Shown: positions 9,666 through 54,607, numbered from the stretch's first letter. The stretch: DNA of 64,000 bases from an uncultured Propionibacteriaceae bacterium (GCA_937926975.1 CALBCJ010000032.1:2355-66354), one strand, 5' to 3'. The notes: a model not told the origin generated them from the letters alone. Numbers and translations: made by a program.

Positions 9666-10069
9666 TGCTTCACCTGCCGCAGCATCTGGAGCATCGAGTC
9701 GGTGTACGCGTCCAGTGACCGGATCGAGTCCTCCTGGATCTGGCGGACCTGGTCGCGGACCGCGCCCAGGTCGGGAGACAGCTGGGACAGCTGGGCCATC
9801 AGCGCGGTCTGGTACGCCTCCAGGGCGTTGTTCACGGCCTCGGCAATGTGGTCACCCAGCTCGGCGTTGCTGAGTCGCAGCAGCTGCGGCTGCAGGCTGA
9901 CTTCCTGAACTCGGCCGTTGGTCACCGTCACCCGCAGCCGCTCGTCAGCGGCTGTGCCCTCCGCCGTGACCGGGCTGGACTCCAGGTCCGGGCCCGGCGA
10001 CGGGGCCTCAGCCCGAGCCAGCTGCGCATCCAGATCGGCAAACACCTGCCGCAACGATTCCATGGTCAT
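9662..10069 (-). CDS. YbaB/EbfC-like protein (ESX-locus associated type)
   Basis: LRVTVTNGRVQEVSLQPQLLRLSNAELGDHIAEAVNNA matches the YbaB-fold core. GAGGAG RBS lies 6 nt before the ATG at 10069. Confidence 0.6.
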   Translation of the reverse strand: MTMESLRQVFADLDAQLARAEAPSPGPDLESSPVTAEGTAADERLRVTVTNGRVQEVSLQPQLLRLSNAELGDHIAEAVNNALEAYQTALMAQLSQLSPDLGAVRDQVRQIQEDSIRSLDAYTDSMLQMLRQVKQ

Positions 10070-10249
10070 ACGGGCTCCTCGCCTGGGGTACTCATCAGCA
10101 TAGGCGTTCCAGAGCCATGGCGCGCTGCTTCTCACGAGAACTCGTCAGCAGCCGGCTTGACGACTCGAGTGTGCCCGCCTGATCCGCAGGGGATGGTGAC
10201 GACTACCCGGAACAGCCCGTGACCTGCGTACGCCAAGGGGCGGCGCAGC

Positions 10250-11074
10250 TTGGCCGGTGCTGTGCCCACCGGCCACAATGGGGGGATGGCACCAGGAGAC
10301 AGCAGCGCAGAACAGCCGCACCAGCAGGGGGTGATCGCGGACACCGACCAGGCTGGGCCAGACCAGCCGGCCACACCCACACCTCGGCGCCGCGGGCCCG
10401 GGATCGCGATGGTCCTCGGCATTCTCCTGATCGCGGTCGGCCTGGCCACCCTGGGCTGGATGGGGTACCAGTACTTCGGCACCAACGGTCCGTCGAAGGA
10501 GGCCGCAGCCTCCGAGATCAGCCAGCTGGAGCAAGAGTGGTCCAGCGGCGCCCAGACTCCGGCCCCAGCTGCCAGCAGCCCGACGCAGGCGGGCACCCCC
10601 CAGGCCGGGCCGAGCTACAGCCAGGCCCAGCTCGACAAGGCGGTGGCGATCCTGCGGATTCCGGCGCTGGGCGAGACGTACAAGGTGCCGGTCATCAGCG
10701 GGGTCAGCGACTACGCCCTGGCCCGCGGCGTCGGCTGGTACCCCGGAACGGGACAGCCCGGGCAGGTCGGCAACTTCGCTCTGGCCGGCCACCGGGTCAC
10801 CCACGGTGAGCCGTTCGCCCGGCTCCTGGAGCTCAAGCAGGGCGACCAGGTGATCGTCGAGACCAAGACCCACGTCTACACGTACGTCCTGGACCAGGCG
10901 CCGTCGCAGGTGACCGTCAAGGACGTCGACACCTGGGTGCTGGACCCGGTCCCCGGCAAGAAGAACGCCACGCCCACCCAGGCCCTGATCACCCTCACCA
11001 CCTGCCAGGACCTGTTCCACTCGCCCGACCGGTCGGTGGGCTTCGGGCACCTGGTGGAGGCCAGGCAGAAGTAG
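10250..11074 (+). CDS. class E sortase
   Basis: N-terminal TM anchor, LAGHRVTHG and LITLTTC catalytic motifs. Start codon uncertain. Confidence 0.85.
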   Translation: MAGAVPTGHNGGMAPGDSSAEQPHQQGVIADTDQAGPDQPATPTPRRRGPGIAMVLGILLIAVGLATLGWMGYQYFGTNGPSKEAAASEISQLEQEWSSGAQTPAPAASSPTQAGTPQAGPSYSQAQLDKAVAILRIPALGETYKVPVISGVSDYALARGVGWYPGTGQPGQVGNFALAGHRVTHGEPFARLLELKQGDQVIVETKTHVYTYVLDQAPSQVTVKDVDTWVLDPVPGKKNATPTQALITLTTCQDLFHSPDRSVGFGHLVEARQK

Positions 11075-20299: not shown

Positions 20300-24861
<4,562 letters not shown>

Positions 24862-26767: not shown

Positions 26768-28201
26768 ATGACCATTCCCAACGTGCTGGCGGCCCGGTAC
26801 GCCTCACCCGAGATGCGGACCCTGTGGTCGCCCGAGCAGAAGGTGGTCGACGAGCGCCGGCTCTGGCTGGCGGTGCTGGAGGCCCAGCGTGACCTGGGGG
26901 TGGACTTCGGCGGTGACGACCCCGACCAGGTCCTGGCCGACTACCGGCGGGTGCTGGAGCAGGTTGACCTGGACTCGATCACGGCCCGGGAGCGCGTCAC
27001 CCGCCACGACGTCAAGGCCCGGATCGAGGAGTTCAACGCCCTCGCCGGGCACGAGCACGTCCACAAGGGGATGACCTCGCGGGACCTCACCGAGAACGTC
27101 GAGCAGGCCCAGATGCTGGGCTCGCTGCGGCTGGTCCGGGAGCGGGTGGTGACGGCCCTGGTGGGGCTGAGCCGGCTCGCGGTCCAGTACGTGGCGCAGC
27201 CGGTCGTCGGCCGCTCCCACAACGTGGCCGCCCAGGTCACCACCCTCGGCAAGCGGTTCGCGACGGTTGCCGACGAGCTGCTGATCGCGTACCAGCGTCT
27301 CGACGAGCTGATCGCCCGGTACCCGGTGCGCGGCATCAAGGGGCCGGTCGGCACCAGCCAGGACATGCTCGACCTGCTCGGCGGTGACACCTCCCGGCTC
27401 GCCGAGCTGGAGCGGCGGGTAGCGGCGCACCTCGGCTTCGAGCAGGTGCTGACCTCGACCGGGCAGGTGTACCCCCGCTCGCTGGACCTGGACGCGGTCA
27501 CCGCCCTGGCCCAGGCTGCCGCCGCCCCGTCGAACCTCGCCACCTCGATCCGCCTGATGGCGGGCGCCGAGCTCGTCACTGAAGGCTTCCGGCCTGGCCA
27601 GGTGGGGTCGTCGGCGATGCCGCACAAGATGAACACCCGGTCCTGCGAGCGGGTGAACGGCCTGGCGGTGGTGCTGCGGGGGTACGTGTCGATGGTCGGC
27701 GAGCTGGCTGGTGACCAGTGGAACGAGGGCGACGTGTCGTGCTCGGTGGTGCGGCGGGTGGCACTGCCGGACGCCTGCTTCGCGGTCGACGGGCTGTACC
27801 AGACCTTCCTCACCGTGCTCGCCGACTTCGGGGCCTTCCCGGCGGTGATCGAGGCCGAGCTGGCCCGCTACCTGCCGTTCCTCACCACGACCAAGGTGCT
27901 GATGGCGGCCGTACGGGCGGGGACCGGCCGGGAGGTCGCGCACGAGGCGATCAAGGAGCACGCGGTGGCGGTGGCGCTGGCGGTGCGGGAGTCTGGGGCC
28001 AGCGGCAACGACCTGTACCGGCGGCTGGCGGCCGACTCCAGGCTCGGGCTCAGCCAGGCCGAGCTGGAGGCGGTGGCGCAGGCGCCGCTGGAGCTGACCG
28101 GGGCTGCCGCGCAGCAGGTGCGTCAGGTCTGCGACCGGGTGGAGGAGATCGCCCGAGCCTACCCGCAGGCCGCCGCGTACCAGCCGGGGCAGACTCTCTA
28201 A
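26768..28201 (+). CDS. purB: adenylosuccinate lyase
   Basis: NVLAARYASPEM start and the fumarate-lyase signature SSAMPHKMNTRSCE. Confidence 0.95.
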   Translation: MTIPNVLAARYASPEMRTLWSPEQKVVDERRLWLAVLEAQRDLGVDFGGDDPDQVLADYRRVLEQVDLDSITARERVTRHDVKARIEEFNALAGHEHVHKGMTSRDLTENVEQAQMLGSLRLVRERVVTALVGLSRLAVQYVAQPVVGRSHNVAAQVTTLGKRFATVADELLIAYQRLDELIARYPVRGIKGPVGTSQDMLDLLGGDTSRLAELERRVAAHLGFEQVLTSTGQVYPRSLDLDAVTALAQAAAAPSNLATSIRLMAGAELVTEGFRPGQVGSSAMPHKMNTRSCERVNGLAVVLRGYVSMVGELAGDQWNEGDVSCSVVRRVALPDACFAVDGLYQTFLTVLADFGAFPAVIEAELARYLPFLTTTKVLMAAVRAGTGREVAHEAIKEHAVAVALAVRESGASGNDLYRRLAADSRLGLSQAELEAVAQAPLELTGAAAQQVRQVCDRVEEIARAYPQAAAYQPGQTL

Positions 28202-28363: not shown

Positions 28364-28990
28364 ATGCCTGTCGGTCGTTACCTGGCCACAGCGGTCGCCC
28401 TGGCCGCGCTGTCTGGCTGCAGCCTGCTGGCCGAGGCGGGGATCGAGATCGAGACTCCCGACTTCCTGCTGACCCAGCAGGTCCGGACCCGGGCCGGCTC
28501 CCAGCCGCAGCTGGCCGGCCTGCCGATGCCCGGCTGGGCCGCCATCGGCCCTCACCCGGCCGACAGCGCCGAGCCCGGCTCGGGCGCCGTGCAGCGGTAC
28601 ACGGTCAGCGACGCGTCCTGCGTGGTCGAGACCCGTACCGTGGTTGCGACCAGCACCTGGGGACGCGGTGACGACCGGTACCTGAGTGACCAGCTGGTGA
28701 AGCGCTTCGTCGCCGCCCACACCCAGGGCACCCCGATGGCTGGGATCGAGAAGAGCCTCAAGATCAGCGAGGTCACCCTGAGGGGCGACCGGGGAGCGGT
28801 CTCAGTCCGCGAGGGGGCCGCCAAGATCACCGGGTACGAGCAGCGCGTGGTGGCCCGGGTCGCGGAGACCAGCGGCCAGGCGATCCTGATCTCCTACACC
28901 TGCCAGGGCCCGGTTGACTACGCCAAGTGGACCGCCCTGAAGGACGCCACCACCGTGGTCGGCTTCCTGCCGGAGTCCTTCGCTGACTGA
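28364..28990 (+). CDS. hypothetical lipoprotein
   Basis: Lipobox LAALSGC near the N-terminus. No family recognised. Confidence 0.6.
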   Translation: MPVGRYLATAVALAALSGCSLLAEAGIEIETPDFLLTQQVRTRAGSQPQLAGLPMPGWAAIGPHPADSAEPGSGAVQRYTVSDASCVVETRTVVATSTWGRGDDRYLSDQLVKRFVAAHTQGTPMAGIEKSLKISEVTLRGDRGAVSVREGAAKITGYEQRVVARVAETSGQAILISYTCQGPVDYAKWTALKDATTVVGFLPESFAD

Positions 28991-29119: not shown

Positions 29120-29491
29120 ATGGCGGGTGCAGTCGACAGTGCTGTCTGGGGGCAGATCACCCAGGCGCTGGGAACGGATCCGACCTCCTGCCGCGGCAAG
29201 GGGCGACTCGTGAGCAGTCGACGACCTGGTGGGCCAGTCCACGGGCACACGACCCGGGTTCGACGGGAGGCGTCCCACGACATCGATTGGCGGCTGCTCG
29301 ACTCGCCAGTACTGCGCAACGTGGACCAGGTTCGGGCCCTGGACCCAGCGGCACGGGTGGACCTCGTCTGCATGGCCTGTGGGGCGGAGACTGGGTCGAT
29401 GGTCCAGATCGAGGCGAGCGTTCTCGCTGCGCTCGGCAACGCCGGCTGCGGGATCCTCCTCGACATCTATGACAGTGATGATGAGGACTGA
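29120..29491 (+). CDS. hypothetical protein with acidic tail (weak call)
   Basis: Only frame here without off-frame-like Arg/Pro/Ser bias. Third-position GC is about 77% by my count, which appears lower than the neighbouring genes. No homolog recognised. Confidence 0.3.
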   Translation: MAGAVDSAVWGQITQALGTDPTSCRGKGRLVSSRRPGGPVHGHTTRVRREASHDIDWRLLDSPVLRNVDQVRALDPAARVDLVCMACGAETGSMVQIEASVLAALGNAGCGILLDIYDSDDED

Positions 29492-29686
29492 CCTGCGGGA
29501 CTCTCCAGACAGAGACCGAGGGTTCCGGGATGTGCAGCATTCCCCAACGGATGTCTACGGGGGAGTCCCAGCAGCCTCGTGATGGCCTGAGTCTGGAGCG
29601 AGAAGGTCGTCCGGCTGGAGGGCCACGAGATCTTCGAGGGCTTCCCCGCGACACCGGAGCAAAGAACCTCTGACCAGGCAGAACGC

Positions 29687-30946
29687 TCATCGCAGTCGAG
29701 CGGGTCCCGGTCTGGTCCGGTCCTCTCGGGCCGGGCCGTCGGCGCTGACCAGGACCGGGATTCCGGTCGCCGCCAGGGCGTCGAGTGCAGAGCCGGTGAC
29801 CGGGCGGGGCCGGGCCCGCCGTACCTGATCGGTGAGCTGCGACCGGGCCTCCAGGTCGTCTGGGTCGCTGACCGGGTGCCAGTCGCCGGAGTCGACCACC
29901 GGCAGGTCGACATCGGCGTGGGTGACCGCCAGCCAGTCCGGGCGGGCGGCGCGGACCGCGTACCGCAGCATCCCCAGGTCCAGCCTGCCGAGCCGGAAAG
30001 CACCCTGGAACTCGCCCTCGCCGTTGTGGCGCTCGCCCACGTCCAGCGCTGAGTCCTCCGACGGGAACGGCCCGGCGCCGTGGCGGCTGTGCAGCGTACG
30101 GGCCACCCCGACCACCTGCGCCGGCTCGTCGGTGACCCGGGCCAGGAGCTCGCGGGCCGGGCCGGGCAGGGTCGTGGACCAGGTGGTGTGCGGGTGGAAG
30201 CCGACCCGCTCATCCAGCAGCGCCCCCTGGGCTCCCTCGAAGACCACCTCCCCGCGGCCCACCCAGTCCGCGAGCGGGTCGCCGACCTCGACCGTACGGC
30301 CGAAGTCCAGCAGCAGCCCCGCCATCTCGGCCACGCTCGGTACGTCCGTCGTGACCGGGGCGTAGAAGCGGACCAGGTCGTCGAGGCGGGAGACCAGCCG
30401 GCGGCGGTTCTGGGTGTCCACGGCCCGGGGCGCCACCCCGACCGCGTCGGAGGGGCAGCGGGTGTCCCCGTACGACTGGCCAGCTCGCAGCCCCCGGGCC
30501 GTGGCGCCGGCATAGAAGACGGTCTCGCCGATCCCGAGCCCGGTTGACCCGTGCCGGGCGTCACCACGGGCCCGCTCCCGGGCCTGGTTGGCCGCCACGT
30601 GGACCGGGGTCACCAGCAGCGCCGCCGGGTCGACACTCACCGTCGCCAGCGGGTTCGCCACCCCCAGCCGCTCCAGCTGGACCGCCTCAGCAGCCAGCAG
30701 CTCGGCGTCGAGCAGGTGGTGGCGCGACAGGTGGGTCGGGACCCCGGCCAGAGTGCCCGAGCCGAGCTGGCGAAAGGTGTGGTGCCGACCGGCGGCGACC
30801 ACGTTGTGGGCGGCCTGGGCGCCACCGTTGAACCGGACCACACCGGCCACGCCACGACCGGTGCGACCGCCGACCGAGCACAGCCAGTCGACGGTCGCCC
30901 CCTTGCCCTCGTCACCGAAGCCGAGGCCGACCACGATCGTGTGCAC
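29687..30946 (-). CDS. divergent adenylosuccinate-synthetase-fold protein (PurA paralog, altered substrate motifs)
   Basis: GFGDEGKGA P-loop, AAHNV, GLGIGET, FEGAQGALLD and HGAGPFPSE are retained. The TTGRPRR loop is replaced by GAFRLGR and TKLD by THAD. GTG start lies 6 nt after the vWA stop. Confidence 0.8.
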   Translation of the reverse strand: MHTIVVGLGFGDEGKGATVDWLCSVGGRTGRGVAGVVRFNGGAQAAHNVVAAGRHHTFRQLGSGTLAGVPTHLSRHHLLDAELLAAEAVQLERLGVANPLATVSVDPAALLVTPVHVAANQARERARGDARHGSTGLGIGETVFYAGATARGLRAGQSYGDTRCPSDAVGVAPRAVDTQNRRRLVSRLDDLVRFYAPVTTDVPSVAEMAGLLLDFGRTVEVGDPLADWVGRGEVVFEGAQGALLDERVGFHPHTTWSTTLPGPARELLARVTDEPAQVVGVARTLHSRHGAGPFPSEDSALDVGERHNGEGEFQGAFRLGRLDLGMLRYAVRAARPDWLAVTHADVDLPVVDSGDWHPVSDPDDLEARSQLTDQVRRARPRPVTGSALDALAATGIPVLVSADGPAREDRTRPGPARLR

Positions 30947-30952
30947 TGCTGG

Positions 30953-31870
30953 CTACCAGGGGCGGGTGAGGTCGCGCCCCATGGCCCGGTGGACCACCGC
31001 CGCCGTCCCCGAGACCGACTCGACATCGTCCAGGGCCGCCGACAGGTCGATGGTCTGCTCCTCGACCCCGATCGTCACCGCGATCAGCTCGCTCACCGCC
31101 GACGGGTCCTCCAGCCGCAGGAACCGCTGGCCCAGCAGCGAGCGCCAGTGCTGGTCGATGTCCCGGTCGTTCCAGTGCGCGGTCATCCGGGGCAGGATCA
31201 TGTAGACGTTCCAGTGCTGCTGCAGGTCGATGTACAGCTGGGTGACGTCCACGTCCTCCACGGTCTCGACTCCCAGCACCTCCCGCAGGTGGCGGGCCTT
31301 CAGCACCGGCTTGTTCAGCTCGTCACCGATGATGAACAGGTACCCCTTGCGGTGGTGCCTCTCGATGGCGTCGGCGAGGACCCGGTTCGCGATGAACCAC
31401 GCGGCCAGCTCGTACGACTCGGACTTCTGGCCGCCACCACCGCCCTCCAGGAAGATCTGCCGCAGCTGCTCGTCCATCCGGTTGTCGGACTCGAACTGCC
31501 CGACCTGCAGCGGCACCCGGTCGCAGTCGGCGTCGCCGATCGCCCCGAACATCAGCTGCGGGTCACTGACGTAGCGCCCCTGGAGCAGCAGCTCTAGCAG
31601 GGTCGGCAGCCGCTGCTGAAGCAGCCGCGGCACCCGCTGCATCGACCCGGTCACGTCGAAGAGCACCGCGATCGGCGTGGAGTACGGGTGCTCGGCGCTG
31701 TCGCGAGCCTCCCGTACGGCACCGAACGGCTCTAGCGCCGGCGCCGCCCGCCACTGGCTGGGGTTCTGCCGCTGGGTCTGCGCGTTGTAGGCGAACCCGT
31801 CGATCCCTCGCGCCCGCCGGTACGCCTCGGCCGCCTCGTAGCCGCTGGTGCTCCACCTGCCCTGTCCCAT
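30953..31870 (-). CDS. von Willebrand factor A (vWA) domain protein
   Basis: MIDAS-like DVTGSM, followed by GAIGD and LFIIGDE strands. AGGAGG RBS lies 7 nt before the ATG at 31870. Confidence 0.75.
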   Translation of the reverse strand: MGQGRWSTSGYEAAEAYRRARGIDGFAYNAQTQRQNPSQWRAAPALEPFGAVREARDSAEHPYSTPIAVLFDVTGSMQRVPRLLQQRLPTLLELLLQGRYVSDPQLMFGAIGDADCDRVPLQVGQFESDNRMDEQLRQIFLEGGGGGQKSESYELAAWFIANRVLADAIERHHRKGYLFIIGDELNKPVLKARHLREVLGVETVEDVDVTQLYIDLQQHWNVYMILPRMTAHWNDRDIDQHWRSLLGQRFLRLEDPSAVSELIAVTIGVEEQTIDLSAALDDVESVSGTAAVVHRAMGRDLTRPW

Positions 31871-31895
31871 TCTCTGCCTCCTTGCCTTGAACCTG

Positions 31896-31926
31896 TATGT
31901 AGTACATAACACTAGTAATGATTACT
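31896..31926. promoter_or_regulatory. two palindromes in AT-rich divergent promoter region
   Basis: TATGTAGTACATA (31896-31908) and AGTAATGATTACT (31914-31926), in the only strongly AT-rich stretch of this region. Confidence 0.4.
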
Positions 31927-32601
31927 CAAGAGGGGTCGGAGGTCCGAGAGGTGATACGAGCCATGACGGCGCAGGCCCGCGCTGAGGCGGCGGATAGGGT
32001 GCCGGGCGTGGACTCCCTGGTATCGGTCGACGTGCTGGCGGTTCGACTGGCCGACGGCGAGGTCCGGTTCGCGGCCGTACGGCGCCAGACCGAGCCCTTC
32101 GCTGGGGAGTGGGCGCTGCCGGGGGTGCTGCTGCTGGAGGGGGAGCGGCTGATAGAGGCCGGGCAGCGGGCCCTGCGCGACAAGGCCGGCCTGGTGGCGA
32201 CTGAGCTGGGGCAGCTGATCGTCTTCGACGAGCCGCTGCGCGACCCGCGCGGCGCCACCCTCTCAGCAGCCATGTGGGCAGTGCCGACCGGCGACCCGGC
32301 CGGGGTGGAGTGGCGCCCGGTCGACGACCCCGCAGACCTGGCCTTCGACCACCACACCATCGTCACCAGCTGCCGCCCGATCCTCGCCCGGATGCTGTGG
32401 AACGACTTCTGCTTCACAAAGTCCCTGATGGGGGTGGAGTTCAGTGTGGGAGACGCGATTGGGGCCACCGTCTCGCTGACGGGAGCGATGCCCGACCGGG
32501 GCAACCTCAACAAGAAGCTCGCCTCGCTGCCCGGCCTCGAGCGCGCCGGGTACGGAACGGGGCGCGGCCGCCCCTCCCGCTGGCGCTGGGCGGACGGCTG
32601 A
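31918..32601 (+). CDS. NrtR-like regulator: non-catalytic Nudix domain fused to C-terminal winged helix
   Basis: Nudix fold with a degenerate box (GERLIEAGQRALRDKAG, catalytic Glu pair lost). C-terminal FDHHTIV...NLNKKL...GRGRPSRW resembles the NrtR wHTH. The true start may be the ATG at 31966. Confidence 0.75.
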   Translation: MITQEGSEVREVIRAMTAQARAEAADRVPGVDSLVSVDVLAVRLADGEVRFAAVRRQTEPFAGEWALPGVLLLEGERLIEAGQRALRDKAGLVATELGQLIVFDEPLRDPRGATLSAAMWAVPTGDPAGVEWRPVDDPADLAFDHHTIVTSCRPILARMLWNDFCFTKSLMGVEFSVGDAIGATVSLTGAMPDRGNLNKKLASLPGLERAGYGTGRGRPSRWRWADG

Positions 32602-32694
32602 GCCCGGCGCGCGGCACCCGGTACGCGACCGGTCCCGGCGGCACTGCCCCCGGGTAAGGGCTCATATCCTGCCTTCCGGCACTAGACTCCCCAC

Positions 32695-35043
32695 GTGCCC
32701 ACGTCACACCTTGACCTGCCCCTCGCCCACGCCGGGAAGGTGCGCGAGCTGTACGCGACCGACCGCGACGACCAGCTCCTGCTGGTGGCGACCGACAGCA
32801 TCTCGGCCTTCGACCGGGTGCTGCCGACACCGGTCCCCGACAAGGGGGCGGTGCTCACCCAGCTCAGCACCTCGTGGCTGGGCCAGCTCGCCGACGTCGT
32901 ACCGAACCACCTCGTCAGCTCGCAGGTGCCACCACCTGTGGCCGGACGGGCGGTGGTCGTGGAGCGCCTGGAGATGGTCCCGGTGGAGTGCGTGGTCCGC
33001 GGCTACCTGGCGGGGTCCGCCTGGAAGGAGTACCGCGAGACCGGGCTGGTCGCCGGGATGGAGCTGCCGCGCCAGCTGCTGCAGGGCGAGCGGCTGGAGC
33101 GGCCGCTGTTCACCCCCGCCCGCAAGGCGCCGCAGGGAGAGCACGACGAGAGCATCACGTACGCCCAGCTGGCGCACAGCGTCGGGCCGGACCTGGCCCG
33201 CCAGCTCTGGCTGGCCTCCATGAAGCTGTACGTCCGGGCCGAGCGGATCGCCCGCTCGCGGGGCCTGATCCTGGTGGACACCAAGTTCGAGTTCGGCCGT
33301 CGCGCCGACGGCACCCTGGTGCTGGCCGACGAGGTGCTGACGCCGGACTCGTCGCGGTACTGGTCCGTGGCCGACTACCGGCCCGGGCAGGAGATGCCCG
33401 CCCTCGACAAGCAGCTGCTTCGGGACTGGCTGGCGACCGAGTCGGGATGGGACCCCGACAGCGGGCAGCCGGCCCCCGAGCTGCCGGCGGCGCTGGTGGC
33501 GGCGCTGCGCGACCGCTACACCGACCTCTTCCGGCGCCTCACCGGGTACGACATGACCCCGGCCGAGCCGTGGGTAGCACGGGCCGCCGCAGGGCAGGCA
33601 GCGTCAGCAGCGCCACCGGCTGGCGCCAGTGCTGTCTCGGGCCAGCCGGGAGACGACCTGGCTGAGAGCGCGACCCCCGCCCCGGAGGCTCAAGGCGCCG
33701 GCGCCCACCTGGACCCGGCCCAGGGCGAGTTCGCGTCCGGGCCCGGCACCCAGGGCGGGCTCGTCCCTCCAGCCCCCGACCCGGCGCTGAGCGGTGCTGG
33801 CGCCCCGGACGAGACGCCCGGTGGACCGGGTGCTGGTGCGGTCGGACCGCCTGTCGACCCGACCCTCGCGGACGAGCCGGCGACCGGCGGGCCGGAGCCA
33901 GCCACAAAGAGCGAGGCAGGCCCGCTGACCGGTGGTGCCGAGATCGAGCAGGCGCACGCGGAGGCCCGTGCGGCCGCCGACCTGCTGGACAACGACCTGA
34001 CGGTGGGGCTGGGAGGCGGCGCCGCTGCCGGCCCAGGTGCCGAGACGCTGCCGGCGCCGGCCGCCGGCGAGGCCATCAGCCAGGACCAGCTCGTCCCAGA
34101 CCAGGTCGCAGGGACAGGCCAGGTAGCCCAGCAGGGCCCGGAGGCTGCCGGTGAGCCCCTGGGTGGACCCGAGGTCGGCGAGCCGGCCGCGTACGAGACG
34201 GCAGACGGCCCCCTGGAGGCTGTGACTCAGGAGGTGGTGAGAGCAGAGGGCCTGGAAGGGCTCATCGACGGTGAGCCCGCGGCGGCTGAGCCGGAGCCCG
34301 GGCCGGCCGCTGGCGCCGCCGAGCTGGAAGGCAGCCCAGGCCAGGGTGTGCCGACGAGTGGTGCCGCGGTCGCCGCGCCACCACCTGACGCCGACCTGGT
34401 GGCGGGCGCCGGGGCAGACGAGGACGCCGCGTACAGGGCCGCTGCGCTCCCGCCCGCCGAGGGCCTGGCGCCAACCGGTGAGGTCCTGCCCGTCGCGGCT
34501 GAGGCCCCAGCCACCGCGGAGGGTGCAGGCGAGCTGCCGGGAGCGGCCGGGGTGCCGGTGGTCGGGCCGGGAGCGGCCGAGGAGCCGGCGGGTGCTGAAG
34601 CGGCGGCTGGAGCGGACGTGGCTGAGGCTGCTGGGGCGGACCATCCGTACCAGGTGGCGGCCGGACCGGCGGGTGCTGAGGGCTCGGTGGCAGACGAGAC
34701 CAGGACGGGTCCGGCCGAGCCGGACGCCCGCTACGACCACCGCGCCACGCAGGAGGCGGGGGTCGCCCACGACAGCAGCGGACCGACCACGACCCTCGTG
34801 GTCGAGGTGATGCCGAAGCCCGAGATCCTCGACCCGCAGGGCAAGGCCGTCACCGGGGCCCTGCGCCGGCTGGGGTTCGGCGGGCTGTCGGTCCGGCAGG
34901 GCAAGCGCTTCGAGGTCGTGGTCGACGGCGAGCTGAGCGACGACCTTCTCCAGCAGGTACGGCAGGCGGCTGAGACCCTGCTCGCGAACACCGTGATCGA
35001 GGACTTCAGGGTCGTCGTGCCCGAGGAGCAGGGGCAGGCATGA
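32695..35043 (+). CDS. purC: SAICAR synthase fused in frame to PurS through a roughly 400-aa low-complexity linker
   Basis: aa 1-295 are PurC ([28 protein letters not shown]). aa 701-782 are PurS ([17 protein letters not shown]). There is no in-frame stop between them. Confidence 0.8.
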
Positions 35044-44477: not shown

Positions 44478-44612
44478 TGACGTGCTCCGGGGTCGGTGAA
44501 AGTCCGAGCCGGCGGTGACAGTCCGCGACCCGGACCGGCAGGACGCTGCTGGTCTGGCTGACCTGGTGGAACTCCAGGACCGACGGTGAAAGCCCGGATG
44601 GGAGGTAGCACG
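44478..44612 (+). promoter_or_regulatory. FMN riboswitch (RFN element)
   Basis: All conserved RFN blocks are present in order: GGGGUCGGUGAAAGUCCGAGCCGGCGGU, AGUCCGCGACCCGG, CCUGGUGGAACUCCAGG, GACCGACGGUGAAAGCCCGGAUGGGAGG. A TAGGAT -10-like hexamer lies at 44462. Confidence 0.75.
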
Positions 44613-44699
44613 GGCCTGCCGCGGCGTGACCGCTGCTCGGGCAGGCTTCGCGGCTCCGCGCCGTACGACCCCGGTCGCACGGCGGACCGGAGGAGCGTG

Positions 44700-46576: not shown

Positions 46577-46650
46577 GCCCCTATAGCTCAGCTGGTTAGA
46601 GCAGCGTCCTTTTAAGTCGCGGGTCCTGGGTTCGAGCCCCAGTGGGGGTA
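46577..46650 (+). tRNA. tRNA-Lys (anticodon UUU)
   Basis: Cloverleaf by eye: acceptor GCCCCTA/TGGGGGT, D arm GCTC-AGCTGGTTA-GAGC, anticodon loop CTTTTAA, T arm CTGGG-TTCGAGC-CCCAG. One U-U mismatch in the anticodon stem. Confidence 0.85.
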
Positions 46651-46725
46651 CGTTTCAGGCGACGGCCACGGTGGCGCCGACAGCCCTGACCCCGTACGGG
46701 CGGACCGCTCTGGCACAGTGGGGCC

Positions 46726-54029: not shown

Positions 54030-54105
54030 AGTCCCCATCGTCTAGCGGCCTAGGACACCGCCCTTTCAAGGCGGTTGCGCCGGTTCGAATCCGGTTGGGG
54101 ATGCC
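54030..54105 (+). tRNA. tRNA-Glu (anticodon UUC), CCA encoded
   Basis: GTCCCCATCGTCTAGCGGCCTAGGACACCGCCCTTTCAAGGCGG...TTCGAATCCGGTTGGGGATGCCA. Anticodon loop CTTTCAA. Confidence 0.9.
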
Positions 54106-54251
54106 AGAAGCCCGCCACGGTTGTGGTGGTGGCTCGCGGTGAGCCTCGACCCGTGCTGGCCAGTGTCGGGCCTTGTCAGAACCGAGTGGCGCTGGCTGCT
54201 CCGGTCCGGCTATAGTTCTCAGGGCCCGGCAAGCCGGGTTGGTCTGCACAA

Positions 54252-54325
54252 GGCCCCGTGGCGCAGTTGGTTAGCGCGCCGCCCTGTCACGGCGGAGGTC
54301 GCGGGTTCGAGTCCCGTCGGGGTCG
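54252..54325 (+). tRNA. tRNA-Asp (anticodon GUC)
   Basis: GGCCCCGTGGCGCAGTTGGTTAGCGCGCCGCCCTGTCACGGCGG...TTCGAGTCCCGTCGGGGTCG. Confidence 0.9.
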
Positions 54326-54337
54326 CTTGGCAGACTC

Positions 54338-54411
54338 GGCCAGGTAGCTCAGCTGGTAGCAGCGTTCGCCTGAAAAGTGAAAGGTCGCCGGTTCGACCCC
54401 GGCCCTGGCCA
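54338..54411 (+). tRNA. tRNA-Phe (anticodon GAA)
   Basis: GGCCAGGTAGCTCAGCTGGTAGCAGCGTTCGCCTGAAAAGTGAA...TTCGACCCCGGCCCTGGCCA. The D arm pairs less cleanly than usual. Confidence 0.85.
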
Positions 54412-54607
54412 CTCCCTCTGCCCGTGGTGAGCTCCCGATCGTCCTCAGAACCCCGTCTGTGACGGTTATTTCAACCTGTACACGGATCTTCGGTTTTGCC
54501 GCCGGTCGGAGGGCCTGACCGAGTACCGGCTACCACGCTGACGCTGGTGCTCCGTACTCTTCATCTCCTTCTCACGAAGCACTAGTTGAACCTTGGATTG
54601 ACCTATC

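Follow-up and report, generated by a model that had tools for sequence, protein, structure and literature searches.

The three-gene block and its proteins

Between purB and a fused purC-purS gene in a 64,000-nucleotide stretch of DNA from an uncultured Propionibacteriaceae bacterium (GCA_937926975.1 CALBCJ010000032.1:2355-66354; hereafter the window), we found a two-gene operon encoding a protein of von Willebrand factor A (vWA) fold and a PurA-like protein, and a divergent gene encoding a Nudix domain with a winged helix-turn-helix (Nudix-wHTH; Table 1). The window is high in GC (~71%) and actinobacterial, and its nearest public relatives are Propionibacteriaceae metagenome bins. A first-pass annotation had placed the PurA-like gene, the vWA gene with its DVTGSM motif, the 6-nt gap between them and the divergent Nudix open reading frame (ORF) where we find them. 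It had also put the block between purB and purC with a canonical purA 5 kb away, which holds with the correction that purC is fused to purS. The gap runs from the TAG stop codon of the vWA gene to the GTG start codon of the PurA-like gene and reads CCAGCA.

Table 1. Positions of the block, its control region and other features of the window
Feature	Position	Strand	Remarks
PurA-like gene	29687-30946	-	PurA-superfamily amidoligase; 419 aa; GTG start; second of two operon genes; ORF read
vWA gene	30953-31870	-	vWA-fold protein; 305 aa; ATG start; first operon gene; ORF read
Shine-Dalgarno-like GGAGG	31877-31881	-	6 nt 5' of vWA ATG; read from sequence
Predicted operator region	31896-31926	.	Two palindromes and TAGT-N7-ACTA; common to the divergent promoters
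Palindrome TATGTAgTACATA	31896-31908		
TAGT-N7-ACTA	31900-31914		Bridges both palindromes
Palindrome AGTAATgATTACT	31914-31926		
Shine-Dalgarno-like GGAGG	31938-31942	+	8 nt 5' of GTG 31951; read from sequence
Nudix-wHTH gene	31951-32601	+	NrtR/AraR-family transcription factor; predicted repressor; Pfam NUDIX 24 bits
purB	26768-28201		Flank of block
purA	23431-24861		Canonical, full length; Pfam 584 bits; 5 kb from block
purC-purS fusion	32695-35043	+	Other flank of block
ORF	28364-28990	+	208-aa lipoprotein-like protein
ORF	29120-29491	+	123-129 aa; convergent with PurA-like gene
FMN riboswitch	44480-44613	+	81 bits
tRNA-Lys gene	46577-46651		
tRNA-Glu/Asp/Phe cluster	54031-54412		

The PurA-like protein matches Pfam PF00709 (E = 5.4e-50, 170.8 bits), only over profile positions 1-328 of 416, and it matches PurA entries in the PDB at 1e-24 to 9e-27 and phrog_1211 at 9e-59. 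It falls far under the curated purA equivalog cut-offs, scoring 104.5 against 395.55 bits for TIGR00184 and 129.6 against 402 for NF002223, consistent with the first-pass proposal, against which a place inside ordinary PurA would have counted. It also scores 25.7 bits against the PurZ model, NCBIfam NF038379, the cut-off of which is 300.

To compare its residues, we built an alignment of 121 bacterial family members, three phage copies, E. coli PurA and the window's own PurA, and read the motifs of two alphaproteobacterial plasmid copies directly. Positions below are given in E. coli PurA numbering, and the catalytic, IMP-binding and aspartate-binding roles of the residues follow the PurA literature. 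The window protein retains D13, K16, H41, Q224 and the C-terminal GP.R motif. GFGDEGKGA, AAHN and FEGAQG are present in at least 90% of the 121 bacterial members as well as in the three GenBank phage and two plasmid copies, D333 is conserved in the family, and the Asp of T-K-x-D is retained throughout (THLD or TCLD, with THAD in the window in place of the TKLD of PurA). The TTWST segment and the S/T pair at 128-129, which with Q224 contact the base in PurA, are likewise conserved. By contrast, the aspartate loop T300-T301-G-R303-R304-R305 is replaced in all copies, across phyla, by an aromatic residue (F/Y/W) followed by Q-G-x-x-R, and reads F-Q-G-A-F-R in the window. Further family differences from E. 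coli PurA are K331 to His, V273 to His (TRHG) and N38 to Gln, the deletion of ~45 C-terminal residues and an insertion of ~20 aa after GIGET. The family retains the Asp in GDEGKG, where PurZ has a Ser that accommodates the 2-amino group (bioRxiv 10.1101/2025.10.22.683976).

The first-pass annotation had called this PurA fold degenerate. Its catalytic residues are intact, however, and the replacement is confined to the aspartate site; as judged from its residues, the protein is neither degenerate nor a purA duplicate. The same residue logic suggests that GTP-dependent activation of an IMP-like 6-oxopurine is retained and, as the aspartate site is lost from an intact catalytic core, that the nucleophile would have to be something other than aspartate.

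The vWA protein had no Pfam or NCBIfam match at E <= 0.01, and the profile of its family had no match among PDB sequences even at E <= 10. An AlphaFold2 model (predicted local distance difference test score 78, predicted template modelling score 0.84) matched integrin beta-I, the CD11b I-domain and the NorD vWA domain with a Foldseek probability of 1.00, with E ~1e-6 to integrin beta-I and NorD; the best non-integrin match was NorD in complex with NorQ. The protein also matches phrog_2971 at 6e-56. DVTGSM occupies residues 72-77, and the complete metal ion-dependent adhesion site (MIDAS; D72-V-T74-G-S76, E151-S152 and G182-D183-E184) is invariant in 20 sequences. In a cross-phylum alignment, D72, G75, S76, E151, D183 and E184 remain invariant and T74 and S152 are conserved at >=90%. 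An EGGGGGQ loop is invariant in actinobacterial alignments and nearly so across phyla. The N terminus reads MGxGxW, and its Met-Gly and the aromatic residue at position 6 are invariant throughout the lineages compared, Vibrio and Rhizobium phages and low-GC viral contigs among them, despite the predicted disorder of the first ~60 residues in the model.

Several unusual copies of the vWA gene were inspected. A 595-aa protein from a Mycobacterium cluster-C phage (P0355) was rejected as a fusion protein; it is a phage vWA protein containing an intein, with a ~260-aa intein/HNH-like insertion between GRKGY and IFIGDE. In some Bixzunavirus copies, the intein interrupts exactly the beta-strand that bears the MIDAS Asp; inteins tend toward insertion at functionally critical sites. 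Two apparent vWA-PurA-like fusions (P0247 and P0298) proved to be frameshifted read-throughs and hence give no evidence of a physical complex.

For the Nudix-wHTH gene, GTG 31951 is the likeliest start: a GGAGG lies 5' of it, and the gene called in identical contigs has the matching length of 216 aa. Translation could instead begin at ATG 31918, within the predicted operator, or at ATG 31963, which had been listed as 31966. The frame 31918-32601 gives a weak Pfam NUDIX match. A profile built from 15 orthologs, however, matched AraR (5bs6) over positions 9-208 of 210 with E = 1.8e-21 and Shewanella NrtR (3gz5) over positions 6-206 with E = 4.3e-17, covering the winged helix, and so bears out the earlier description of the regulator as NrtR-like. 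On these profile matches, the regulator belongs to the NrtR/AraR family as a diverged subfamily. The Nudix box reads RALRDK in the window instead of REUxEE, and the signature is lost in all 15 aligned orthologs; the domain is therefore predicted to bind a ligand but not to hydrolyse it.

Conservation, predicted operator and mobile contexts

We next scanned one genome per species with the vWA alignment as query, confirming at least 532 loci, and counted neighbourhoods in the best 80 of them. In all 80 loci the PurA-like gene comes after the vWA gene, and a Nudix-wHTH homolog is present in 75, usually next in line on the same strand; a contig end truncates most of the five loci without a Nudix match. 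Thus, the three genes stay together as the conserved unit that the first-pass annotation had suspected. The 80 loci come from Amycolatopsis, Saccharothrix, Lentzea, Actinosynnema, Umezawaea, Kutzneria, Nocardia, Nakamurella, Antrihabitans, Mycobacterium and an uncultured Propionibacteriaceae bin, and a Gordonia copy was seen separately. Sequence identity across orders is 55-60%, and in Amycolatopsis the stop codon of the vWA gene overlaps the start codon of the PurA-like gene.

The chromosomal sites are stable within genera. The module lies between apt and relA in Nocardia (21-28 loci), beside gcvH in Amycolatopsis (8 of 8 loci) and between purB and purC-purS in Propionibacteriales (the window and the related loci L008 and L092, with a vWA identity of 70-75%). 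The pur context is limited to Propionibacteriales, and the module lies away from pur genes in other orders. Since the purB-purC site is occupied in three lineages and other genera carry the module elsewhere, the pur location is old in the Propionibacteriales lineage and no general property of the module. Relative to L008 and L092, the vWA/PurA-like pair is inverted in the window and the Nudix gene is inverted separately, giving the divergent arrangement. In M. abscessus, where the module is carried on an FtsK/SpoIIIE-bearing element resembling an integrative and conjugative element (ICE), the ORF directly 3' of the PurA-like gene (L006:9362-9937) was rejected as a Nudix homolog; the homolog is the convergent gene at 10061-10699.

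The 80-bp spacer between the divergent genes is AT-rich, at 48% GC compared with ~71% for the window, and contains the two palindromes that the first-pass annotation had described. In a direct scan, TATGTAgTACATA and AGTAATgATTACT were the sole AT-rich perfect 6-1-6 palindromes in the 64 kb, and the TAGT-N7-ACTA motif bridging them occurs once in the window against 0.01 expected. All 25 exact matches to TAGT-N7-ACTA in the 80 genome loci (1.56 Mb) lie directly 5' of the first operon gene, and in Pseudonocardiales a variant, GAGTC-N5-GACTC, occupies the same place. M. abscessus, which has its Nudix gene in a separate transcription unit, carries two copies of the motif, one ahead of the operon and the other ahead of the Nudix gene. 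Upstream of the vWA gene in Nocardia, we found TTGAC-N17/18-TA(C/G)ACT, with the inverted repeat GTTTTAGT-N7-ACTAAAAC lying over the -10 element. A scan of 29400-32750 in the window for consensus sigma-70 promoters and terminators gave no sites, and promoter placement therefore rests on the comparison with Nocardia. The pattern is that expected of an autoregulated local repressor at a predicted operator, and its conservation argues for the co-regulation of the three genes that had been proposed.

A related arrangement is found on an Agrobacterium vitis plasmid, pRvVAT039a. The spacer there (L178:5733-5853), between a divergent Nudix gene and an operon that starts with a J-domain/kinase-like gene and continues with the vWA and PurA-like genes, contains GACTTAG-N13-CTAAGTC and TTAGAC-N11-GTCTAA. 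These repeats use the same AGTC/GACT tetramers as the arms of the actinobacterial operator in reversed order, with GACT on the left and AGTC on the right.

The first-pass annotation had missed that the core pair is mainly a module of large phages, plasmids and ICEs, usually accompanied by a J-domain kinase-like protein. Among GenBank phages, there are 219 matches to the vWA protein and 225 to the PurA-like protein with matching host make-up (~200 Mycobacterium cluster-C phages (Bixzunavirus), 10 Rhizobium phages and 6 Vibrio phages). In phages I3, pv27 and RHph_TM30, at most one small gene separates the pair, and in Bxz1 the vWA gene is gp248. In IMG/VR, 516 viral contigs encode a vWA relative; in the best 80, used for neighbourhoods, the PurA-like gene lies 3' of the vWA gene in 76. 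These contigs are mostly 100-500 kb long and the loci range from 26 to 71% GC. Plasmids of Rhodococcus (among them pRHL1 of R. jostii RHA1) and Tsukamurella also carry the pair, as do alphaproteobacterial megaplasmids (A. vitis and Acetobacter); in A. vitis, a divergent Nudix-wHTH gene accompanies it, as in the window. The megaplasmid copies adjoin an AbiEii toxin gene, the type VI secretion system gene VgrG and IS6.

The accompanying fourth gene precedes the vWA gene in 46 of the 80 genome loci and is found at most 6 kb from it in 57 of the 80 viral loci; in phage I3 it is gene 270 (phrog_3043). Its product begins with a J-domain whose HPD motif is intact and continues as a kinase-like domain, where VHGA replaces the HRD aspartate (for example, L088:9030-9998, L005:5917-6996 and L094:3460-4590). 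No homolog was found anywhere in the window. No third gene family is common to the Mycobacterium, Vibrio and Rhizobium phage neighbourhoods, and a small homologous ORF lies 5' of the vWA gene in the Vibrio and Rhizobium phages only.

Some viral copies have neighbours related to NAD. In jumbo-phage contigs from IMG/VR (L131, L137, L138, L140, L145 and L146), the module neighbours NAMPT and an NrtR-like gene that is catalytically intact (Pfam NrtR_WHD, 1e-24). In Vibrio phage pv27, a NADAR gene lies two genes 5' of the module (L095:4137-4787), and in Rhizobium phage TM30, Nudix, PRTase_3 and HAD genes lie 5' of it (L096:798-3125). Such neighbours are found in ~10 of the 80 viral loci, probably representing one or two related lineages. 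As this covers about a tenth of the viral loci, we treat a link to NAD or ADP-ribose as a possible lead only.

Within the window, the block showed no sign of the defence-island or prophage setting that had been raised earlier: a cryptic prophage was rejected because there are no phage genes in the block, its GC content is normal and its position is kept in relatives. Rfam and tRNA scans found nothing within or adjoining the block. Two ORFs lie between purB and the module, neither with a Pfam or NCBIfam match and neither kept with the module elsewhere; the one encoding a lipoprotein-like protein is also found in L008. The purC-purS gene is a single 782-aa ORF, with SAICAR_synt at residues 12-254, PurS at 702-773 and a low-complexity linker of ~440 aa rich in Ala, Pro, Gly and Glu. 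The fusion is also present in identical contigs (781 aa), and a more distant relative has a short-linker version (447 aa).

Proposed mechanism and alternatives

The reading that we favour, and hold somewhat likelier to be right than wrong, is that a repressor of the NrtR type responds to a ribose-nucleotide by releasing a vWA/PurA-like pair, translationally coupled, whose product would be an N6-substituted purine nucleotide or conjugate. The first-pass idea that the module makes or modifies a nucleotide derivative is likewise suggested by the conserved residues. The Nudix domain, having lost its catalytic glutamates, would act purely as a sensor of a ribose-containing nucleotide, ADP-ribose being the likeliest type of ligand. 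The repressor is predicted from comparative genomics to bind the palindromic operator and thereby control both its own gene and the divergent operon. The vWA and PurA-like proteins would be made together and act as an obligate pair, possibly in physical association. The residues of the PurA-like protein suggest that it binds GTP and Mg2+, phosphorylates the 6-oxo group of an IMP-like nucleotide and joins an amine other than aspartate, such that the product would be an N6-substituted purine nucleotide or conjugate and not adenylosuccinate. More speculatively, the vWA protein may deliver or position the second substrate, or may itself be the acceptor. The loss of the aspartate site from an intact catalytic core points to N6-purine ligation chemistry that would depend on the metal site of the vWA partner.

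The pair may be regarded as an ancient mobile unit common to large lytic phages, megaplasmids and an ICE-like element. Given the canonical purA and the restriction of the pur context to Propionibacteriales, the module would stand outside de novo purine synthesis, even though its place between purB and purC is a stable one in this lineage. As the pair is common to lytic jumbo phages and their hosts, the module probably touches a nucleotide or NAD/ADP-ribose process that is important in infection. The predicted repressor-operator pair provides a handle for finding the inducing ligand.

Several observations weigh against this proposal. In L008 and L092, the nearest relatives, the order is purB, vWA (+), PurA-like (+), Nudix (-) and purC, with the Nudix gene convergent and not divergent, and no operator was found before the Nudix gene in either locus. 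The window's Nudix protein scores 33.7 bits against the NrtR equivalog NF050029, well under its cut-off of 400, and Pfam did not detect the winged helix in this copy. In the PurA-like protein, the Arg at R143, a contact in trans to the IMP phosphate, is not conserved, in a region where the alignment is unreliable, and D13, H41 and K16 would persist in a pure GTPase too. Finally, the mobile contexts and the combination of vWA, kinase-like and Nudix transcription factor parts fit conflict systems as well.

That last point leads to an anti-phage defence or conflict system, which we consider unlikely. Here, the vWA protein would sense a phage protein and the PurA-like enzyme would alter or deplete a nucleotide pool or make a toxic or signalling nucleotide; the Nudix regulator would hold the system off until ADP-ribose-type signals appear, and the phage copies would be decoys or counter-measures. 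A vWA protein coupled to a kinase calls to mind the TerY-P triad, and the M. abscessus element and the toxin, secretion and insertion-sequence neighbours on megaplasmids would suit such a role. In addition, Nudix-HTH regulators and vWA 'chaperones' are found in predicted ADP-ribosylglycohydrolase (ARG)-centric conflict systems of actinobacteria (PMC9503650). However, a PADLOC scan of the three proteins gave no match, no nuclease, pore or NADase effector is present, and the pair is common in strictly lytic large phages. The genus-stable housekeeping sites in actinobacteria and the high conservation across orders also argue against defence.

A role in salvage or repair linked to NAD+ and ADP-ribose, which is partly compatible with the favoured mechanism, is in our judgement also unlikely. 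ADP-ribose released by NAD+ consumption would switch the module on to recycle or repair a purine nucleotide or an ADP-ribosylated product, and phages would carry the pair beside NAD+ salvage genes to withstand NAD+-depleting immunity. Characterised NrtR proteins sense ADP-ribose (PMC9503650), and the NAMPT, NADAR and Nudix-PRTase_3-HAD neighbourhoods described above accord with this idea. Those neighbourhoods nevertheless account for few viral loci, and most medium and jumbo phages carry some NAD or ADP-ribose gene anyway (PMC9503650). Moreover, no NAD genes flank the module in the window, where the operator-adjacent genes are the vWA/PurA-like pair, and no obvious step in NAD pathways requires activation of a 6-oxopurine.

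The invariant N terminus of the vWA protein allows a more radical reading, which we rate as quite improbable, in which the vWA protein itself is the second substrate. After removal of the initiator Met, the amine of the invariant N-terminal Gly would replace L-aspartate, and a purine nucleotide would become attached through N6 (~+330 Da for IMP). The J-domain pseudokinase would then recruit Hsp70 or clients, and the Nudix regulator would sense nucleotide state. If true, this would be a previously unknown 'N-terminal purinylation' of a protein used by large phages and actinobacteria.

Slightly less credible still is a chaperone resembling MoxR-vWA pairs, in which the PurA-like protein would serve only as a GTP-driven motor or switch. 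Together with the vWA MIDAS, and with the J-domain protein where there is one, it would bring about the maturation or remodelling of a client protein or the insertion of a metal cofactor, with no nucleotide product. The structural match to NorD bound to NorQ fits this reading, the HPD-bearing J-domain partner in most other copies points to the handling of Hsp70 clients, and PurA is a P-loop NTPase with kinship to the SIMIBI/BioD group that includes metallochaperone GTPases. Yet the conservation of the base-contacting residues of PurA (Q224, TTWST and S/T 128-129) and of the catalytic base/acid pair greatly exceeds the needs of a GTPase, and no client gene is conserved beside the pair.

The PF00709 match and the purB-purC position kept in three related lineages would suit a second adenylosuccinate synthetase isozyme of the pur operon, as automatic annotation counts the gene on account of its purine-operon location, but this is very improbable and the gene almost certainly no second purA, given scores 3-4 times under the equivalog cut-offs, the lost aspartate-binding residues and C-terminal segment, the intact purA nearby, the distance from pur genes in other orders and an obligate vWA partner that has no role in AMP synthesis.

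Comparison with known systems

PurA (EC 6.3.4.4) shares with the PurA-like protein the PF00709 fold, the P-loop GDEGKG, Asp13, His41, Gln224, the guanine-binding Asp of (T)KxD and the C-terminal GP motif, and on this basis the two probably have the first half-reaction in common, that is, GTP-dependent 6-phosphorylation of an IMP-like nucleotide. The PurA-like protein differs in its identity of only ~27-30% to PurA, its position far under the equivalog cut-offs, its replaced aspartate loop and its constant pairing with a vWA gene. PurZ/PurZ0 of the phage 2-aminoadenine pathway is likewise a phage-borne PurA paralog, and PHROGs places both in phrog_1211, which explains the GenBank label '2-aminooxy adenylosuccinate synthetase' on phage copies of the PurA-like gene. 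PurZ, by contrast, still uses aspartate and has no vWA partner, and the module lacks the datZ, mazZ and dpoZ partners. In a 2026 survey of PurZ, the viral PF00709 proteins that are not PurZ were treated as other PurA homologs and used to root the tree (PMC12884076).

The regulator resembles NrtR and AraR in combining a Nudix domain with a C-terminal winged helix, in its inactivated Nudix box and in the palindromic operator at an adjacent target promoter, with autoregulation predicted here; it is predicted to act on the vWA/PurA-like operon and not on NAD or arabinose genes. MoxR-vWA systems (NorQ-NorD, CobS-CobT and BchI-BchD) similarly encode a MIDAS vWA protein beside a P-loop NTPase with which it presumably works. 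The NTPase of the module, however, is of the PurA superfamily and not AAA+, and it keeps substrate-base-binding residues. No adjacent AAA+ MoxR ATPase was found, the only conserved neighbours being the PurA-like, Nudix-wHTH and J-domain/kinase-like genes.

The TerY-P triad, a validated defence system, consists of the vWA protein TerY, a Ser/Thr kinase and a PP2C phosphatase. Most module copies outside the window likewise couple a vWA gene to one for a kinase-fold protein, but the module has no PP2C, its kinase-like protein has a J-domain but no HRD aspartate, and a PurA-like ligase stands in third place. ARG-centric systems regulated by Nudix or WYL proteins, which are predicted to reverse ADP-ribosylation, combine a Nudix-HTH regulator with a vWA 'chaperone' in actinobacteria (Iyer et al. 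2022, PMC9503650). The module differs from these in lacking ADP-ribosylglycohydrolase, rhodanese-phosphatase, Macro and REase genes, with no ADP-ribosylglycohydrolase or phosphatase core domains in the window block or in annotated module contexts, and a PurA-like component is not mentioned in that account.

Consistent with the first-pass impression that the triad matched no described system, searches of the literature available found no description of a vWA/PurA-like/Nudix-wHTH module, and word searches of a jumbo-phage review (PMC7824862) and the viral NAD-ADP-ribose review (PMC9503650) for PurA, adenylosuccinate and a kinase-fused J-domain gave nothing. Database labels for its genes are wrong or empty ('adenylosuccinate synthetase', the '2-aminooxy' form in PHROGs or 'hypothetical'), and the module, although very widespread, is unnamed across at least 532 species-level genomes, 516 IMG/VR contigs, ~200 sequenced mycobacteriophages and megaplasmids. 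Each of its components comes from a known superfamily, namely a PurA/PurZ-type ligase, an NrtR-type switch and a vWA-NTPase pair; as a system, it is undescribed and unusually widespread.

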